A stretch of 46,142 nucleotides of DNA from the sequence record MZ997841.1; one strand, 5' to 3'. This document shows, in pieces, positions 1 through 46,030 of the stretch. This stretch comes from Escherichia phage ULINTec7. Within the stretch, counting starts at the first letter, position 1; each line of letters opens with the position of its first letter. The translations under genes and the position numbers were made by a program. The notes beneath the pieces are model-generated. The model was given only the letters and a program-made list of their open reading frames with translations, ran no database searches and was not told the DNA's origin.

Positions 1-634
1 CCATATGGGGTCGGTCGGCGGTTGACCTAGGAATTGGGCGGGGCGGGTCCGTCTTCAACCTGCTGCCGCAGGAAGCTCGACGGGTGGGCGAGGGCTTGCC
101 TTGTACTCGCTTAGTGGTACACAAGGAGAACGCCTAGGAAGCGCTAGGGCACGCCTTAGTATTGGACAAGGTGATTGCCTTAGTTCAACCGCTTAGGGCT
201 TACACGGGCCGTTTTAGGGCCATTCCTGAGCGTTTGACAGGGTGTGAGGGCGTGGGCTATCTGTTCGTTTCGTTCACTCCGCTTGCGCTACGTTCACTCG
301 CTCACGTGTACCTTAGGTTATTCCTTGATGGATAGCTTAGATTAGCCTTAGTGGATTACCTTAGTTAAAGCCTTAGTGCTTCACTTAGTATCAGCTTAGT
401 AGTGTACCTTAGTAAGTCTTAGTGTCTTCTCTTAGTGATTGCACATGCAAGCATGTAAGATGCCATTAGGTCGCGGTCGGTAGACCGCTAAAAGAAGGAG
501 AATAGTAATAAGATGCAGTAGGAGGAACACCAGAAGCCTAGCCAACCTAGCCTATCCTAGCTCTGTATCTATTGCTTTTCCTTAGTCTAACACGTTAGAC
601 AACCTATCTTATTCTTAGTGATGGTAACTTAGTG

Positions 635-663
635 TTGACAAGATAATCTTAGTGTAATACTAT
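635..663 (+). promoter_or_regulatory. Candidate host sigma70-type early promoter
   Basis: TTGACA at 635-640, 17-nt spacer, TACTAT at 658-663, upstream of the first early ORFs. Analogous to the T7 A-promoters. Confidence 0.45.
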
Positions 664-735
664 GCATCACGTAGGCGGTGCTGAGGCACCTAGTAGCCAG
701 CTAGTAAGGCATATGAAGAGACTAGCGCTTACATT

Positions 736-760
736 GCTCTTTAACAATTTGCTTAGTGTA
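736..760 (+). promoter_or_regulatory. Early-region conserved element, copy 1 (GCTCTTTAACAAT core, partial)
   Basis: Core GCTCTTTAACAAT at 736-748, lying 17 nt upstream of the ATG at 765. Confidence 0.4.
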
Positions 761-764
761 ACCT

Positions 765-989
765 ATGTATGCCGTGGTTAACTACTTATTGAATGAGGTA
801 TTAACTATGACATTAAACAACCGTGAACTGTCCGTTATCTTCACTCTGTTATGCTACATGATTCGTAACAACGAATTGCTTACAGATGATGAGTTGGCAC
901 TATATCACCGCTTTCTTAACGAAGGTTGGACAGATACAGTTAACCATAAACGTGACTTGATGAAGGAGTTAAGCAATGTATCAGCATGA
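765..989 (+). CDS. Hypothetical early protein
   Basis: ORF in early region. The ATG at 765 has no obvious SD; an internal ATG at 807 with GAGG 8 nt upstream is an alternative start giving 60 aa. Confidence 0.4.
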   Translation: MYAVVNYLLNEVLTMTLNNRELSVIFTLLCYMIRNNELLTDDELALYHRFLNEGWTDTVNHKRDLMKELSNVSA

Positions 990-1200
990 GGTTTTCTTTG
1001 AATCAGCTAAAGAAGCTATTCGATTGCATGATGATATGAAGTTAGCAGATATGAAGGTTGGCTTGACCAGCTTCCTGCTGGATTACAACATGGAATATCA
1101 CCGAGTTACCTTAGTATCTGAGTATGACAACCAAGTCATTACTGAGTATCTAGGTAGTGAAGATTATGATTACGATGAAGTAATCACGACAAATCTCTAA
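976..1200 (+). CDS. Hypothetical early protein, acidic C-terminus
   Basis: 74-aa ORF with AGGAG 7 nt upstream of the ATG. Confidence 0.5.
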   Translation: MYQHEVFFESAKEAIRLHDDMKLADMKVGLTSFLLDYNMEYHRVTLVSEYDNQVITEYLGSEDYDYDEVITTNL

Positions 1201-1208
1201 ATTAACTA

Positions 1209-1237
1209 TTGACAACCACGGCATACAAGGTTACATT
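1209..1237 (+). promoter_or_regulatory. Candidate host sigma70-type early promoter
   Basis: TTGACA at 1209-1214, 17-nt spacer, TACATT at 1232-1237. Confidence 0.4.
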
Positions 1238-1270
1238 AAGCATCAAGACGGCGACGTCTTTAAACATCCC

Positions 1271-1308
1271 GCTCTTTAACAATCTGGCTAGTGCCTTGGT
1301 AGGCTAAC
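1271..1308 (+). promoter_or_regulatory. Early-region conserved element, copy 2
   Basis: Core GCTCTTTAACAAT at 1271-1283 followed by CTTGGTAGGCT, 44 nt upstream of the ATG at 1327. Confidence 0.4.
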
Positions 1309-1326
1309 TACTTACTAAGGTGAAAT

Positions 1327-1539
1327 ATGAACTACTGCGACATCGCTCACGAATTACGCATGGAACGTGAGAAACAAGAAAGGCGGATTATCAAGAAGAT
1401 GGCTGTACTGCTTGCACACTATAAGGCAGACAAACAGCCAACACATGATGAGTTCGTGGACTTCTGTAACATGTATCTTAATGTGAGTAAGGCCACTGGT
1501 TACAGATGGCTTAAAGCACTGAATGATGGAGAATTGTAG
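1327..1539 (+). CDS. Hypothetical early protein
   Basis: 70-aa ORF with AAGGTGA SD, downstream of conserved element copy 2. Confidence 0.5.
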   Translation: MNYCDIAHELRMEREKQERRIIKKMAVLLAHYKADKQPTHDEFVDFCNMYLNVSKATGYRWLKALNDGEL

Positions 1540-1561
1540 CAATAAGCCAGCTTAATAGCTG

Positions 1562-1616
1562 GCCTATCAAGGCACTAACCTAGCTCTTTAACAATCTGGT
1601 TTGTGTCTTGATAGGC
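1562..1616 (+). promoter_or_regulatory. Early-region conserved element, copy 3, with flanking inverted repeat (candidate RNase III-type stem-loop)
   Basis: GCCTATCAAGG at 1562-1572, core at 1583-1595, CTTGATAGGC at 1607-1616. The two arms are reverse complements, giving a ~10-bp stem around the core. Confidence 0.45.
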
Positions 1617-1638
1617 TTACTAACAAAGGTGAACTATC

Positions 1639-1803
1639 ATGACTAACGCACAACGTAAACGCTATGATGCATTGCAAGAGAAACTTGCTGTTGCTTATGC
1701 CGCTTGGCAAGCTAACACAGATAAGAGCAAACACGATAAACTTTATAGTAAAGTGGTTGCAATTAATGCTAAAATAGATAAACTTGTGAATAGTATCTTA
1801 TGA
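1639..1803 (+). CDS. Hypothetical small early protein (54 aa)
   Basis: Hand-translated ORF below the 60-aa track cutoff, with SD AAAGGTGA and placed like its neighbours after conserved element copy 3. Confidence 0.4.
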   Translation: MTNAQRKRYDALQEKLAVAYAAWQANTDKSKHDKLYSKVVAINAKIDKLVNSIL

Positions 1804-1824
1804 GATAGTTGCTGGCACTAGCCA

Positions 1825-1888
1825 GCCTATCAAGGCACAAGCCACGCTCTTTAACAATATGGGTAGTCGCTTCTTAGTCTGGATAGGT
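1825..1888 (+). promoter_or_regulatory. Early-region conserved element, copy 4, with flanking imperfect inverted repeat
   Basis: GCCTATCAAGG at 1825-1835, core at 1846-1858, CTGGATAGGT at 1879-1888. Confidence 0.4.
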
Positions 1889-1956
1889 TAAACCTAGGGT
1901 ATTCTTTTGAGTTCCCTATAATGTAACCTAACTAACTAACTAATGAGGATTAAATC

Positions 1957-2283
1957 ATGGAACGCAATGCTAACGCTTACTACAACCTTCTGGCTGCAAC
2001 TGTTGAAGCATTTAACGAGCGCATTCAGTACGGTGCAATTCGTGAAGGTGATGATTATTCTGATGCACTTCACGAGGTTGTAGATAGCAATGTTCCAGTT
2101 TATTACAGTGAAATCTTTACTGTGATGGCTGCTGATGGGATTGATATTGAATTTGAGGATGCTGGTTTGATTCCTGACACGAAGGATGTAACCAAGATTC
2201 TACAAGCTCGCATCTATGAGTCTCTTTATAATGATGTACCAAATGATAGTGATGTAGTTTGGTATGAAGACGAGGAAAAATAA
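1957..2283 (+). CDS. ocr: Ocr-like DNA-mimic anti-restriction protein (T7 gene 0.3 homolog)
   Basis: Translation [45 protein letters not shown] aligns closely by eye with recalled T7 Ocr ([45 protein letters not shown]). Highly acidic, 108 aa. Confidence 0.88.
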   Translation: [108 protein letters not shown]

Positions 2284-2284
2284 G

Positions 2285-2398
2285 ATGGAAAGGCAATATA
2301 ACTTCATCTTCTCAGACGGTGTAACCTTGAAATGCTCCTTACGATTTGCGCAGATTCGTGAGGAAGTGCTAGGTACTACATACAAGCTATTTAGTTGA
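2285..2398 (+). CDS. Hypothetical small protein (37 aa)
   Basis: Short ORF immediately after ocr with GAGGA upstream. Confidence 0.25.
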   Translation: MERQYNFIFSDGVTLKCSLRFAQIREEVLGTTYKLFS

Positions 2399-2412
2399 CA
2401 CTATAAGAGAAG
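2389..2412 (+). promoter_or_regulatory. Phage-RNAP promoter-like sequence (variant)
   Basis: ATTTAGTTGACACTATAAGAGA matches the window consensus at most positions and resembles the SP6 promoter ATTTAGGTGACACTATAGAAG. Confidence 0.45.
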
Positions 2413-2474
2413 GCTTAACAAGGCGTTGCTACGGTAGCGCCTGATTAAACTTTCACTTACTAGAGGTTAAGATT

Positions 2475-2600
2475 ATGAAACTATCGCCATCAACTAAAGG
2501 TCTTATTGCAGAACTTAAAGACTCTTTGAGGAATCCAATCATTTGGGCACTTATCTACATACCTTATGGTATCTACCTGTTTCACCTCATCACTGAGTAA
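2475..2600 (+). CDS. Hypothetical small membrane protein (41 aa)
   Basis: Hydrophobic stretch IWALIYIPYGIYLFHLI, SD-like AGAGG upstream. Confidence 0.3.
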   Translation: MKLSPSTKGLIAELKDSLRNPIIWALIYIPYGIYLFHLITE

Positions 2601-2633
2601 CTAGCCTATAGCCTGCCTGTGTGGGCTATGTGA

Positions 2634-2654
2634 TATTTACTTACACTATATAAG
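2634..2654 (+). promoter_or_regulatory. Weak phage-promoter-like sequence
   Basis: ATTTACTTACACTATATAAGG, a degenerate match to the consensus. Confidence 0.25.
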
Positions 2655-2663
2655 GTGACTATT

Positions 2664-3548
2664 ATGACTACTGAAAACACCCTTCTGTCTGTTCGTGAAG
2701 CTGCAACCGCTGAAATCAAGCAGCACTTAGACAATATCGGCACTTCTTACATCAAAGTTGGCGCTTGTCTGAATGAATTACGCGGTGATTTCGAAGGTCA
2801 AAAAGACTTTTTAGCTTATGTAGAATCAGAGTTCGGCATCAAGAAGGCACAATGCTACAAGCTGATGAGTGTAGCCCGTGTCTTTGAAGGAGACGAACGC
2901 TTTAAAGGTGTGGCTATGCGTGTAATGCTGGCGCTTGTTCCTTTCGCTGATGAAAATATAATCATGGAGAAGGCCGCAGAACTCGCCGCAGATGGCAAGC
3001 TGGACACTAACGCCGTAAACGCCCTGATTGATCCTAAGAAAGAGACAAAGGCCGAGACGGTACAATCTAAGGCTGAGACAGTAAAACCGCAGGAGAACGC
3101 TACTGAGGCCGCAGAATCACAGGAAATGCAAGCGCCGCAGGTAGTTCCACCCGCTAGCGAGCAGGATGCCGACGAATCAGCACCGTGGGATGAGGAAAGC
3201 AAGCCGGAAGCGCCAAAGGCAGCGCCGCTGGATAACACGGCTAATACCGAAAACGCCGCTATATCTGGCCTACTGGCACAAATTAAGGCACTGACTGAGC
3301 AATTACAGGCAGCTAATGACCGCATCGCCTCCTTAAGTAGTGCACGCGAAAGCAAGAAGGCAGCCGCGCCTATGCTGCCGCAATTCAAATCTTCCTGCTT
3401 CTATGCTCGCTTAGGTTTAAGCGCTGAGGAGGCAACGAAGAAAACAGCAGTTAACAAGGCACGCCGCGAACTGGTTAAGCTAGGCTACGGTGAAGGCCAT
3501 GAAGCATGGCCCTTAATCTCTGAGGCAGTAGAAGAGTTGACTAAGTAA
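2664..3548 (+). CDS. Early protein of unknown function, in the slot occupied by kinase 0.7 in T7
   Basis: 294 aa from the ATG at 2664 (TAAGG 8 nt upstream); the ORF-track start at 2655 is a GTG. No kinase motifs seen. Has a central Ala/Glu/Pro/Lys-rich low-complexity linker. Confidence 0.6.
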   Translation: MTTENTLLSVREAATAEIKQHLDNIGTSYIKVGACLNELRGDFEGQKDFLAYVESEFGIKKAQCYKLMSVARVFEGDERFKGVAMRVMLALVPFADENIIMEKAAELAADGKLDTNAVNALIDPKKETKAETVQSKAETVKPQENATEAAESQEMQAPQVVPPASEQDADESAPWDEESKPEAPKAAPLDNTANTENAAISGLLAQIKALTEQLQAANDRIASLSSARESKKAAAPMLPQFKSSCFYARLGLSAEEATKKTAVNKARRELVKLGYGEGHEAWPLISEAVEELTK

Positions 3549-3611
3549 CCTTATCGGTGGCATCTTCTTAGGTGTCACCTATTAAGGTTTCTTTCACTAG
3601 GAGTAAACAAG

Positions 3612-6239
3612 ATGCAAGACCTACACGCTATTCAACTTCAACTTGAAGAAGAAATGTTTAACGGCGGTATCCGTCGCTTTGAAGCGGACCAACAACGCCA
3701 GATTGCATCCGGTAATGAATCAGACACGGCATGGAATCGCCGCTTATTGTCCGAGTTAATCGCGCCAATGGCTGAAGGTATTCAGGCATACAAGGAAGAG
3801 TATGAAGGTAAAAGAGGCCGTGCACCACGTGCATTAGCTTTCATTAACTGCGTAGGGAATGAAGTAGCAGCATATATCACCATGAAAATCGTTATGGATA
3901 TGCTGAATACAGACGTTACCTTACAAGCCATCGCTATGAATGTAGCCGACCGAATCGAGGACCAAGTACGTTTTAGCAAGCTGGAAGGTCACGCAGCTAA
4001 GTACTTTGAGAAAGTGAAGAAGTCGCTTAAGGCTAGCAAGACTAAATCTTATCGTCATGCGCACAACGTAGCGGTAGTAGCTGAGAAGTCTGTTGCTGAC
4101 CGTGACGCGGATTTCTCCCGTTGGGAGGCATGGCCTAAAGACACCTTGTTGCAAATAGGCATGACCTTGCTAGAAATCTTGGAGAATAGCGTATTCTTCA
4201 ATGGTCAACCTGTCTTCCTTCGTACCTTGCGCACTAACGGCGGAAAGCATGGTGTTTACTATTTACAGACCAGTGAACATGTTGGCGAGTGGATAACTGC
4301 ATTTAAGGAACATGTAGCGCAGCTCAGCCCTGCCTATGCACCTTGCGTTATACCTCCCCGCCCTTGGGTATCACCTTTTAACGGCGGTTTCCACACTGAG
4401 AAAGTAGCAAGCCGTATTCGTCTGGTAAAAGGAAACCGCGAACACGTCCGCAAGCTGACCAAAAAGCAAATGCCAGCGGTTTACAAGGCTGTTAACGCTT
4501 TGCAGGCGACTAAGTGGCAGGTTAATAAAGAAGTTTTGCAGGTAGTAGAGGACGTTATCCGTCTCGACCTTGGTTATGGTGTACCTTCCTTTAAACCACT
4601 CATCGACCGCGAAAACAAACCAGCTAATCCGGTGCCGCTAGAATTTCAGCACCTGCGAGGCCGTGAACTGAAAGAGATGCTAACGCCGGAACAGTGGCAA
4701 TCCTTCATTAACTGGAAAGGTGAATGCACCAAGCTGTACACCGCAGAAACTAAGCGTGGCAGCAAGTCGGCGGCTACGGTCCGCATGGTTGGTCAGGCCC
4801 GTAAATATAGCCAGTTCGACGCAATCTACTTCGTGTATGCACTGGACAGCCGCAGCCGTGTATATGCGCAATCTAGCACGCTCTCACCGCAATCAAACGA
4901 CTTAGGCAAGGCACTCCTACGGTTTACCGAAGGGCAGCGCCTTGATAGCTCTGAGGCGCTTAAATGGTTTTTGGTGAACGGGGCTAATAACTGGGGTTGG
5001 GATAAGAAAACTTTCGACGTGCGCACCGCTAACGTGTTAGATGGTGAATTCCAAGACATGTGCCGCGACATTGCAGCGGATCCTCTGACCTTCACTCAAT
5101 GGGTAAATGCCGACTCCCCTTACGGCTTCCTTGCTTGGTGCTTTGAATATGCGCGTTATCTGGATGCACTGGATGAAGGCACGCAAGACCAATTCATGAC
5201 GCACCTCCCAGTCCATCAAGATGGTAGTTGTTCTGGTATCCAGCACTACAGTGCTATGCTACGCGATGCAGTAGGTGCGAAAGCGGTAAACCTTAAGCCC
5301 TCTGACTCCCCTCAAGATATTTATGGTGCCGTTGCGCAGGTAGTAATTCAGAAGAATTATGCATACATGAATGCAGAGGATGCGGAAACCTTCACTTCTG
5401 GCAGCGTGACTTTAACAGGTGCAGAACTTCGTAGCATGGCTAGTGCGTGGGATATGATAGGAATCACTCGCGGCCTGACCAAAAAGCCTGTAATGACACT
5501 ACCTTATGGCAGCACACGTCTAACCTGCCGTGAATCAGTGATTGATTATATCGTTGATTTGGAAGAAAAAGAGGCCCAACGGGCTATTGCGGAAGGGCGT
5601 ACCGCCAATCCTGTACATCCTTTTGATAATGACCGCAAAGACAGCCTGACACCTAGCGCAGCTTATAACTATATGACAGCTTTAATCTGGCCTTCTATTT
5701 CGGAAGTGGTTAAAGCTCCTATAGTGGCAATGAAAATGATTCGTCAGCTTGCACGTTTCGCAGCTAAAAGAAACGAAGGCTTAGAATATCCCTTACCAAC
5801 TGGCTTCATCTTGCAACAAAAGATAATGGCTACCGATATGCTCCGCGTATCCACTTGCTTGATGGGTGAAATCAAGATGAGTCTCCAGATTGAAACAGAT
5901 GTAGTTGATGAAACGGCAATGATGGGTGCGGCTGCTCCTAACTTCGTCCATGGTCACGATGCTAGCCACCTGATTCTGACTGTATGTGACCTAGTGGATA
6001 AAGGTATTACATCCATTGCAGTCATCCATGATTCTTTCGGTACTCATGCAGGACGTACCGCAGACCTGCGGGATAGCTTAAGGGAAGAAATGGTTAAGAT
6101 GTATCAAAACCATAATGCCCTGCAAAACCTGCTAGATGTGCACGAAGAGCGTTGGTTAGTAGACACCGGAATCCAAGTACCAGAGCAAGGAGAGTTTGAC
6201 CTTAACGAAATCTTAGTTTCAGACTATTGTTTCGCATAA
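3612..6239 (+). CDS. Single-subunit DNA-dependent RNA polymerase (T7/SP6 type)
   Basis: 875 aa with [16 protein letters not shown] and [13 protein letters not shown] motifs matching the T7 RNAP catalytic region. Confidence 0.97.
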
Positions 6240-6313
6240 TATTAATAGGCCATTCCTTAGGGAGTGGCCTTTTTCTTTACCTACTACCTGTAACATTTCA
6301 TTAACATAAAAGT

Positions 6314-45904: not shown

Positions 45905-46030
45905 ATATCTTAGTGTACACAAGGGCAGACTTAGGTTTGCTCTTAGTGTCCTCAAAGGAGGTTGTAGGTATGTTATCGTTGTTGTGTATACTAAGTGATG
46001 TCCTAGGTCGTAAGAGGTACATTCTTAGTG
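45905..46030. repeat. Right-end copies of the CTTAGTG short repeat
   Basis: TCTTAGTG at 45908-45915, 45941-45948 and 46023-46030; ACTTAGG at 45929-45935; an inverted copy CTAAGTG near 45991. Confidence 0.6.

Follow-up and report, generated by a model that had tools for sequence, protein, structure and literature searches.

The early region of Escherichia phage ULINTec7 (sequence record MZ997841.1) carries four copies of a short core that, judged by its sequence, is the boxA of the Escherichia coli rRNA (rrn) operons, the NusB/NusE site that nucleates the rRNA antitermination complex (rrnTAC). Directly after each of the first three copies begins one arm of a long-range RNA helix, the other arm of which ends shortly before the next copy, and the first genes are enclosed between the arms. 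We propose that this region is a mimic of an rrn operon, combining boxA antitermination with chaperoned, gene-bracketing helices that RNase III probably cuts and with a resupply of boxA; we give this reading a probability of roughly 0.65. The phage probably borrows in this way the cell's machinery for rRNA transcription and processing for its first genes. The window, by which we mean the whole 46,142-nt stretch of DNA analyzed, belongs to a K1E/K1-5-like Vectrevirus of the SP6 supergroup and is 95-96% identical to K1E and ULINTec4 over positions 500-3600. The identity to boxA, the placement of the copies, the helices, their covariation and their strand bias are direct observations, which we describe below.

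The repeated core matches the boxA of E. coli rRNA operons

The 13-base core GCTCTTTAACAAT is present in four exact copies, all on the + strand and none elsewhere in the 46 kb, at the four positions reported by a first-pass annotation made from the DNA letters alone (Table 1). A search for the 12-mer with at most one mismatch returned the same four matches against 0.27 expected, and none of 100 shuffles reached four. All copies fit exactly the published gamma-proteobacterial boxA consensus GYTCTTTAANA (PMC5725501), also given as UGCUCUUUAACAA, for which a pattern search found these four sites against 0.23 expected. Furthermore, the 16 nt at 735-750 (TGCTCTTTAACAATTT), which include copy 1, match the rrnB leader exactly, the order in the MG1655 leader being ...GCCGCTGAGAAAAAGCGAAGCGGC-AC-TGCTCTTTAACAATTT-ATCAGACAATCTGTGTGGG..., and copies 2 and 3 share AATCTGG with the boxA of the rrnB 16S-23S spacer (TGCTCTTTAAAAATCTGGAT). 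These comparisons were made directly with the MG1655 rrnB leader and spacer; a 41-nt BLAST query against E. coli genomes was too insensitive to return a match. Since the pattern used to search IMG/VR demanded NTG, the "NTGG" extension after boxA is partly an artefact, and we make no claim on it beyond the match to the rrnB spacer. The first-pass annotation had taken the core for part of an RNase III processing site; it is instead the host rrn boxA.

The same boxA is found in related phages. T7 carries the 17-mer GCTCTTTAACAATCTGG at 813-829, between promoter A3 and gene 0.3, and the identical 17-mer is present in the window. According to PMC3709561, which cites Savalia 2010, T7 Gp2 is made dispensable by mutations in a boxA antitermination element downstream of the early promoters. 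SP6 has two exact copies and a one-base variant, K1-5 has three copies, and K1E has three plus a variant with a one-base insertion. The core itself is thus an ordinary addition to the known boxA elements, and boxA in the T7 early leader was already known. One-base variants lie at the expected post-helix position in K1E (L001, ~2238-2251), SP6 (L004, ~1537) and F4M1D (L152, ~2431); they read GCTCTTTTAACAAT, GATCTTTAACAAT and ACTCTTTAACAAC, respectively, and could be weakened sites or sequencing differences.

Around the core, the repeat proved to be a mosaic rather than the conserved element of about 60 nt that had been described, as the 13-mer alone is common to all four copies. Over 62 nt, copies 2 to 4 have 61-77% in common, whereas copy 1 has a stretch of only 35 nt in common with copies 3 and 4. 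Among relatives, the 5' and 3' flank types are combined differently around boxA. In the predicted structures, the local folds leave boxA unpaired at copies 3 and 4, as do the centroids at copies 1 and 2; in the global fold, boxA1 is partly paired in the minimum-free-energy (MFE) structure and unpaired in the centroid only. The helices end at the boundary of boxA, and boxA3 later becomes a hairpin loop. Neither the local folds nor the partner scan revealed a conserved hairpin after boxA of the kind that defines a lambda-type nut site; the downstream sequence is a helix arm.

Long-range helices bracket the early genes

A repeat finder detected complementarity between 3' flanks and the 5' flanks of later copies. 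We then scanned each boxA 3' flank against every 40-nt window in 500-2700. Three helices were found, of 29 (A), 20 (B) and 21 bp (C; B and C about 21), in which the first arm begins within 1-3 nt of boxA and 0-28 nt separate the end of the second arm from the boxA that follows. Taken together as helices of 21-30 bp with a free energy (ΔG) of -40 to -48 kcal/mol, they have the length of more than 17-20 bp expected of an rRNA-type processing stalk. The best partner of the boxA1 3' flank was 1205-1244 (ΔG -48.1; background -14.0 ± 5.0). For the boxA2 3' flank it was the boxA3 5' flank (-40.5 against about -16 ± 6), and none of the 192 background windows was better. Similarly, the boxA3 3' flank pairs with the boxA4 5' flank at -41.4/-42.0, compared to -36.9 for its local partner and a background of about -14 ± 5. 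No strong distant partner of the boxA4 3' flank was detected in the same scan (best ~-26 against about -15 ± 4); this copy is followed by an irregular local hairpin. All arms are confined to untranslated regions and do not reach the ribosome-binding sites. When 670-1960 (1291 nt) was folded without constraints, helix A appeared in both the MFE structure and the centroid.

Small hairpins accompany the helices (Table 1). The one before boxA2, in a boxB-like position, is replaced in relatives by a GCC-GAGA-GGC hairpin at the same place, and the one at the inner end of helix B covaries, being GGCUUGC/GCAAGCC in the locus L115 and containing G·U pairs in SP6. It is a speculative idea that the 6-bp hairpins stack on the 21-bp helices B and C, called b-type here as opposed to the a-type helix A, for about 27 bp in total.

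The inverted repeat that had been noticed around copies 3 and 4 is real at copy 3 (1562-1580 and 1598-1616, 19 nt, 89% complementary), but at copy 4 the left arm GCCTATCAAGG (1825-1835) faces a degenerate right arm (TCTGGATAGGT). Likewise, the stem expected to carry the core in its loop was recovered by RNA folding at copy 3 only (ΔG -36.9, z = -5.3, core in a 17-nt loop); the local fold of copy 4 was no better than shuffles (z = -1.0), and copies 1 and 2 had no local stem (z = +0.9 and -1.2).

Helix pairing is conserved by covariation among relatives

To this analysis we added the early regions of relatives gathered from IMG/VR and GenBank, more than 30 regions from six host genera. The sample included Vectrevirus, Zindervirus (SP6, UAB78 and Kenya-K31), Acadevirus (Pm5460 and PM93) and several Klebsiella Molineuxvirinae, as well as an Edwardsiella phage, Pectobacterium phage Lelidair, ECBP5 and the T7-like phages K30 and PHB19. 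Partners were searched for by an unrestricted downstream scan, as a 45-nt limit misses the a-type partner where a hairpin intervenes (z ~-2). In all sampled regions, the duplex between the boxA 3' flank and its best downstream partner begins at +1 to +3 after boxA, and the distance from the end of the partner to the following boxA is 0-5 nt for b-type and 10-28 nt for a-type helices. The scan gave no strong downstream partner for the final boxA, which lies ahead of ocr.

These data bear on the possibility that each repeat is a local T7-type RNase III stem-loop with the core in its loop or bulge, the complementarity between repeats being a by-product. Copy 3 does form such a hairpin, which is retained in the global MFE structure, and it fits a T7-type local intergenic hairpin of ~40-60 nt, as the one at 1859-1958 does loosely and copies 1 and 2 do not. 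Local RNase III hairpins of T7 also cross-pair, the T7 boxA 3' flank reaching -27.3 with 1420-1455. However, copies 1, 2 and 4 have no significant local fold, and in 47 of 47 distinct flank pairs the duplex with the next copy (mean -42.2 kcal/mol) was stronger than that between a copy's own flanks (mean -19.1 kcal/mol), which rules out repeated local hairpins as a general explanation. In addition, the arms of K1-5, SP6, UAB78, Pm5460, F4M1D, ECBP5 and L115 lack a local partner and nevertheless show compensatory changes, and the a-type helix is long-range of necessity, its arms being 430-850 nt apart. We consider the local stem-loop account improbable.

Covariation supports the long-range pairing. 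In the a-type helix (17 sequences, 29 pairs), 97.5% of the cells are paired, 13 of the 29 pairs changed on both sides and 31 cells are compensatory. The b-type helix (18 sequences, 21 pairs) gave 94.7% paired cells, 12/21 pairs changed on both sides and 35 compensatory cells, a conservative count in that four of the 18 rows, with arm indels that MAFFT could not mirror, were retained. For neither helix did any of 500 shuffles reach the observed value, and register-shifted controls were paired to only 25-41% (a-type) and 25-44% (b-type). The helices covary across phages of Escherichia, Salmonella, Proteus, Klebsiella, Edwardsiella and Pectobacterium, and pairing is kept even between almost wholly different arms, as in Pm5460 (GGUUAGGUGUAUUC/GAAUACACUUAACC), F4M1D (GGAAGGUGUAG/CUACACCUUCC) and two unrelated helices of L115. 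The pairing runs from a copy's 3' flank to the 5' flank of the copy that follows, and a copy's own flanks pair weakly. The analogy that the first-pass annotation drew with the RNase III sites between T7 early genes holds in part: the covarying helices are plausible RNase III substrates, but they bracket genes and do not lie within the repeat.

The non-Watson-Crick cells of the helices comprise 59 G·U and 13 A·C, and in 36 of 47 pairs stability is greater for the + strand duplex than for the - strand version. The excess of G·U together with the greater + strand stability indicates selection on the sense RNA and not on a DNA repeat. This weighs on a further alternative, in which boxA and its inverted arms act at the DNA level, as recombination junctions or terminal inverted repeats of gene cassettes, and RNA pairing is incidental. 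Such a role would account for the flank types recombined around boxA among genomes, for the occurrence of the gene 2.8 cassette with its borders in K30 and PHB19, and for a segment of the window that is the sole one alignable in Pectobacterium phages. However, a DNA repeat is not expected to show the G·U and strand biases, all copies lie on the transcribed strand of host-polymerase units, and the arms avoid coding sequence, ending before the ribosome-binding sites. We regard a purely DNA-level role as improbable too; cassette exchange at the conserved boxA is likely a consequence alongside the RNA function.

The alignable segment, 1583-1647, contains boxA3 with its 3' arm and the ribosome-binding site. 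It is the only early segment that could be aligned (~89% over 64 nt) in Pectobacterium phages Nobby, Lelidair and Clickz, in ECBP5, in PHB19 and in some Klebsiella phages. In the T7-like Studiervirinae K30 (L150, 668-931) and PHB19 (L157, 405-794), a K1E-type cassette of boxA, arm, gene, arm and boxA sits upstream of the phage's own T7-type region of boxA, R0.3 and ocr; the cassette gene of K30 is annotated as K1E gene 2.8. These insertions point to cassette exchange between subfamilies at boxA borders.

The boxA copies lie in a region read by the host polymerase

Two predicted host promoters, P1 and P2, lie in the early region, and copies 1 and 2 are found ~66 and ~27 nt past their predicted starts. 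The annotations of Proteus phage Pm5460 and of K30 list putative host promoters at sites equivalent to P1. Every boxA copy is upstream of the first promoter for the phage RNA polymerase. With two predicted host promoters upstream and the first phage promoter only at 2392, the copies thus lie in a region read by the host polymerase. This is the sole polymerase expected to respond to Nus factors; T7-type polymerases were reported to be unresponsive to them (PMC5725501). The 3' arm of helix A overlaps P2, and RNA started at P2 (~1244) therefore lacks this arm, both arms being present only in RNA reading through from P1. The hairpin with a T run just past the RNA polymerase gene likely marks the end of early transcription by the host polymerase.

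Two other hairpins were found on this path. The 5' arm of a local hairpin at 2395-2475 (ΔG -30.1, z = -5.7) holds the first phage-polymerase promoter, and both of its arms would be present only in host-polymerase read-through RNA. The situation parallels that of P2 within the 3' arm of helix A, and the hairpin is a candidate for a local RNase III site. An Rfam scan of 1-4000 (E <= 10) returned only spurious miRNA and snoRNA matches, one of which was the hairpin at 2398-2468. A terminator-like hairpin with a T-rich tail lies at 2607-2630, between genes 5 and 6, on the way of the host polymerase to the RNA polymerase gene.

The core precedes the start codon by 58 nt in copy 1 (ATG 807; 16 nt if ATG 765 is taken) and by 43, 43 and 98 nt in copies 2 to 4, in keeping with the 17-99 nt initially noted. 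In this position boxA could act negatively, as in suhB, with Nus factors repressing translation of the small early genes and promoting Rho polarity to tune or time expression. Copies 2 and 3 indeed fall inside the 50-nt window for suhB-like sites (PMC5725501, PMC12360218). However, a lytic phage would work against itself by promoting termination ahead of ocr and of its own RNA polymerase gene, the T7 boxA behaves genetically as an antiterminator (PMC3709561), and the copies follow promoters and helices, with no fixed distance to the start codon. A repressive role is accordingly quite unlikely.

A reading of the repeats as weak host promoters, in which TTAACA would be the -35 (5/6 matches to TTGACA) and TAGGCT/TAGTCT ~18 nt downstream the -10, is very hard to maintain: a TAnnnT hexamer does occur 18 nt downstream in b- and c-type flanks, but a-type flanks carry TATGTA, CATGTA or TGTATG there and some c-type flanks are spaced at 14 nt, the promoter scan called none of the repeats, GCTCT upstream of TTAACA is as invariant (all 12-13 positions) although a -35 does not need it, and both the 16-nt identity to the rrn leader and the location after strong promoters in T7, K30, L104 and L022 agree with a signal carried in the transcribed RNA. 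On the silent scan and the absent or mis-spaced -10 elements, we rejected a sigma70 promoter identity, which the first-pass annotation had offered as its second option.

A model for rRNA-like transcription and processing of the early operon

In the model that we favor, boxA in the nascent early RNA made by the host polymerase from P1 and P2 would bind NusB-NusE(S10), which with NusA, NusG and SuhB would turn the polymerase into the fast, Rho-resistant rrnTAC form. Tethered to the polymerase, boxA would keep the 5' arm close to the RNA exit channel up to the emergence of the 3' arm and thereby chaperone the long-range helix. Each arm would pair with its partner once this is made, and genes 1-2, 2.5 and 2.8 would each be looped out in the way of 16S rRNA. 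RNase III would then probably cut the helix, giving small mRNAs whose ends are still paired. Because cleavage detaches the used boxA from the growing RNA, a fresh copy would be supplied after each helix; the leader and spacer boxA sets of rrn operons follow the same logic. With the last copy, the polymerase would pass ocr, go on to the RNA polymerase gene and reach the intrinsic terminator at 6247. There the complex would stop, since complexes of the rrn type cannot read past intrinsic terminators; only Rho-dependent terminators are subject to rrn antitermination (PMC2724277). In the rrn operons, boxA is necessary and sufficient for the nucleation of rrnTAC, and the 23S gene has a second boxB-A-C set ahead of it (PMC10250234). 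There, rrnTAC doubles elongation speed and suppresses Rho, and it greatly raises co-transcriptional cleavage by RNase III, the leader being bridged to the polymerase and the two halves of the helix kept close (bioRxiv 10.64898/2026.03.17.712431).

Several points weigh against this model. For this phage, we infer Nus binding, antitermination, RNase III cleavage and reloading alike, and our literature search turned up no experiment in this group of phages. What the helices enclose is translated mRNA and not stable RNA, and ribosomes could hinder looping. Moreover, boxA near a ribosome-binding site can repress expression, as in suhB (PMC5725501, PMC12360218). The last boxA has a local hairpin only, and in some relatives helices occur without a following boxA (Lelidair, ECBP5 and the copy at 4005 of K13PH07), so the coupling is not obligatory. 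As for the structures, in the global MFE fold the local hairpin of boxA3 is nested within a duplex of the boxA2 3' flank and the boxA4 5' flank; because there are two consecutive b-type cassettes, b-arm pairing in this window is thermodynamically ambiguous. In addition, boxA3 lies in the loop of this stable local hairpin, which could limit factor access after the 3' arm is made. Finally, the shuffle and strand counts come from related sequences and not from independent events.

If rrnTAC does assemble on these leaders, the units of 300-550 nt would be compact natural substrates for the RNA-looping model of co-transcriptional RNase III processing, compared to the 1.5 kb of rRNA. Its assembly would also explain how poorly translated leaders and tiny open reading frames (ORFs) are protected from Rho, and would explain a faster transit of the host polymerase to ocr and the phage polymerase gene. 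In T7, entry of the genome into the cell is also driven by this early transcription. Nus factors, SuhB and RNase III would further become host dependencies of therapeutic K1 and Klebsiella phages, and boxA would be a hotspot for the exchange of early-gene cassettes.

Comparison with known boxA systems

The resemblance to the E. coli rrn operons goes beyond the boxA itself, for which copy 1 and the rrnB leader agree at 16/16 nt. In both, boxA lies ~30-70 nt past a strong sigma70 promoter (predicted in the window), the 5' arm of a long helix begins 1-3 nt after boxA, the RNA downstream is looped out and a further boxA follows. As a control, the 40 nt after the rrnB leader boxA paired, starting at +1, with sequence 8 nt past the 3' end of 16S, with a ΔG of -53.1. 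This duplex is the known leader-trailer helix processed by RNase III, and its geometry is that of the phage helices. Small hairpins precede some copies in the window, and a boxB-like GCUGAGAAAUCAGC is present in the phage contig L104, described below. Unlike the rrn operons, however, the phage helices enclose short protein-coding ORFs (54-74 aa) instead of a stable RNA, there are four units in 1.2 kb compared to two in 5 kb, a predicted promoter coincides with the 3' arm of helix A, and no boxC consensus was identified in the phage. As the helices enclose ORFs and not rRNA, we regard them as mimics and not as members of the rRNA leader-trailer helices.

T7 has the identical 17-mer at the same position, after the host promoters and before ocr, and its order of boxA, R0.3 and gene 0.3 (ocr) matches the last boxA, local hairpin and ocr of the window. 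It differs in having a single boxA in its first 3.3 kb, against the four copies and three gene-bracketing long-range helices found here. The RNase III sites of T7 are local hairpins. Single sites without adjacent long-range helices, unlike those of the window, are also found in suhB, where the site represses, and in the leaders of CRISPR arrays. The suhB 5' untranslated region resembles the window in that a consensus boxA lies in a non-rRNA leader, where it recruits Nus factors (PMC5725501). CRISPR arrays are reported to use antitermination (PMC7665894). The lambda nut sites likewise provide a phage boxA RNA for recruitment of host Nus factors and processive antitermination, as predicted from sequence in the window. 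Lambda boxA is a weaker CGCUCUUA and needs the phage N protein on the downstream boxB (PMC2724277), whereas the boxA of the window has the full rrn consensus, a type working without a phage protein and against Rho-dependent terminators only. As far as the literature searched shows, what appears to be new is the architecture, in which boxA is joined directly to the 5' arm of a covarying long-range helix and the helix is closed shortly ahead of the following boxA, an arrangement found three times in 1.2 kb. A full-text search retrieved no description of boxA or RNase III sites in this phage group, but the SP6 and K1-5 genome papers, which lay outside that search, may list copies; nor did the literature search retrieve RNA end-mapping data for SP6, K1-5 or K1E.

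Similar designs in other phage lineages

We scanned 121 other boxA flanks from IMG/VR and found the same boxA-helix design in two unrelated phages, L104 and L022; the architecture is conserved across phage genera and recurs in unrelated phages. In L104, a unit consists of a sigma70-like promoter, the GCUGAGAAAUCAGC hairpin (compare rrnB boxB, GCUGAGAAAAAGC) and boxA. The hairpin precedes the first two of three boxA copies, and the second and third are followed by a +1 arm with a strong partner. One of the L104 helices (ΔG -44.4, z = -7.8) encloses a 202-aa ORF and a tRNA-like sequence. In L022, a 99-kb contig, boxA is followed by a +1 arm, a 156-aa ORF, the partner arm, a TTGACA promoter and the next boxA (ΔG -38.9, z = -7.3). 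We hypothesize, with odds somewhat short of even, that the host-transcribed early operons of lytic and other phages in several unrelated lineages are rrn mimics that use the full rrnTAC as antiterminator, accelerator and RNA-looping chaperone. In this role rrnTAC would promote, during transcription, both the formation of gene-bracketing helices in mRNAs and their cleavage by RNase III, and after each cut the complex would be reloaded at a new boxA. If this is true, it would be the first natural use of rRNA looping and processing for protein-coding transcripts, and it would explain why boxA is found at the borders of exchangeable early-gene cassettes.

Other arrangements of boxA were seen in IMG/VR. 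In three loci (L088, L089 and L121), a strong sigma70-like promoter is followed ~10-25 nt further on by an rrn-type boxA and then directly by tRNA genes; these phage tRNA arrays appear to use the rRNA antitermination signal. A different phage type (L032 and L039) has divergent promoters ~140 nt apart, each with its own boxA, on opposite strands. In a prophage family (L011, L016, L025, L034, L073, L024 and ~25 other loci), the hairpin AAAAAAGCGCCCTACAGGACGCTT lies directly before boxA, and CUGGAUAUCC... after boxA pairs with ...GGGGAUAUCCAGA ~650 nt downstream (ΔG -29 to -34, z ~-5). This pairing might be related to that of P4-like immunity RNA.

Early genes and coordinates of the features

The curated records of K1E and K1-5 list small early genes in this region, namely gp1, 2, 2.5, 2.8 and the ocr-like gp3, up to the RNA polymerase gp7, and annotate no regulatory features in it. 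The start of gene 1 at 807 was chosen by homology with the K1-5 gene 1 annotation; the ORF list begins it at ATG 765.

Table 1. Positions of the boxA copies, helices, promoters and genes in the ULINTec7 window
Feature	Position	Strand	Details
Predicted host sigma70-type promoter P1	635-663	+	TTGACA-17-TACTAT; promoter scan, 10/12 consensus matches; start ~670
boxA copy 1	736-748	+	exact GCTCTTTAACAAT; within TGCTCTTTAACAATTT (735-750), the E. coli rrnB leader boxA region
Helix A 5' arm (a-type)	750-779	+	starts 2 nt after boxA1; pairs with 1214-1242
Early genes 1 and 2 (small ORFs)	807-1200	+	ORF list; enclosed by helix A
Predicted host sigma70-like promoter P2	1209-1237	+	TTGACA-17-TACATT; promoter scan; start ~1244
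Helix A 3' arm	1214-1242	+	overlaps promoter P2
Small hairpin AAGACG-GCGA-CGUCUU	1245-1260	+	between P2 start and boxA2; boxB-like position
boxA copy 2	1271-1283	+	exact GCTCTTTAACAAT
Helix B 5' arm (b-type)	1285-1305	+	pairs with 1561-1581
Early gene 2.5	1327-1539	+	70 aa; ORF list; enclosed by helix B
Hairpin GCCAGC-UUAAUA-GCUGGC	1546-1563	+	adjoins inner end of helix B
Helix B 3' arm	1561-1581	+	ends 1 nt before boxA3; doubles as left arm of the copy 3 local hairpin
boxA copy 3	1583-1595	+	exact GCTCTTTAACAAT
Helix C 5' arm (b-type)	1597-1617	+	pairs with 1824-1844, 21 contiguous bp
Early gene 2.8	1639-1803	+	54 aa; ORF list; enclosed by helix C
Hairpin GCUGGC-ACUA-GCCAGC	1811-1826	+	adjoins inner end of helix C
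Helix C 3' arm	1824-1844	+	ends 1 nt before boxA4
boxA copy 4	1846-1858	+	exact GCTCTTTAACAAT; last copy
Irregular local hairpin after boxA4	1859-1958	+	from +1 after boxA4 to ocr start codon; ΔG -29.4, z = -2.8
First phage-RNA-polymerase promoter	2392-2410	+	pattern with 12 + strand matches vs 0.23 expected
RNA polymerase gene (gene 7)	3612-6239
Intrinsic-terminator-like hairpin with T run	6247-6270	+	just past RNA polymerase gene

A short repeat, CTTAGT, forms an array of 15 + strand copies at the left end of the window (110-648), upstream of and into promoter P1, and three further copies lie at the right end (45909-46024). CCTTAGT was counted 17 times against 6.7 expected. The array is reminiscent of the short repeat arrays beside the ends of the T7 genome, and CTTAGT is also present within a- and c-type helix arms.

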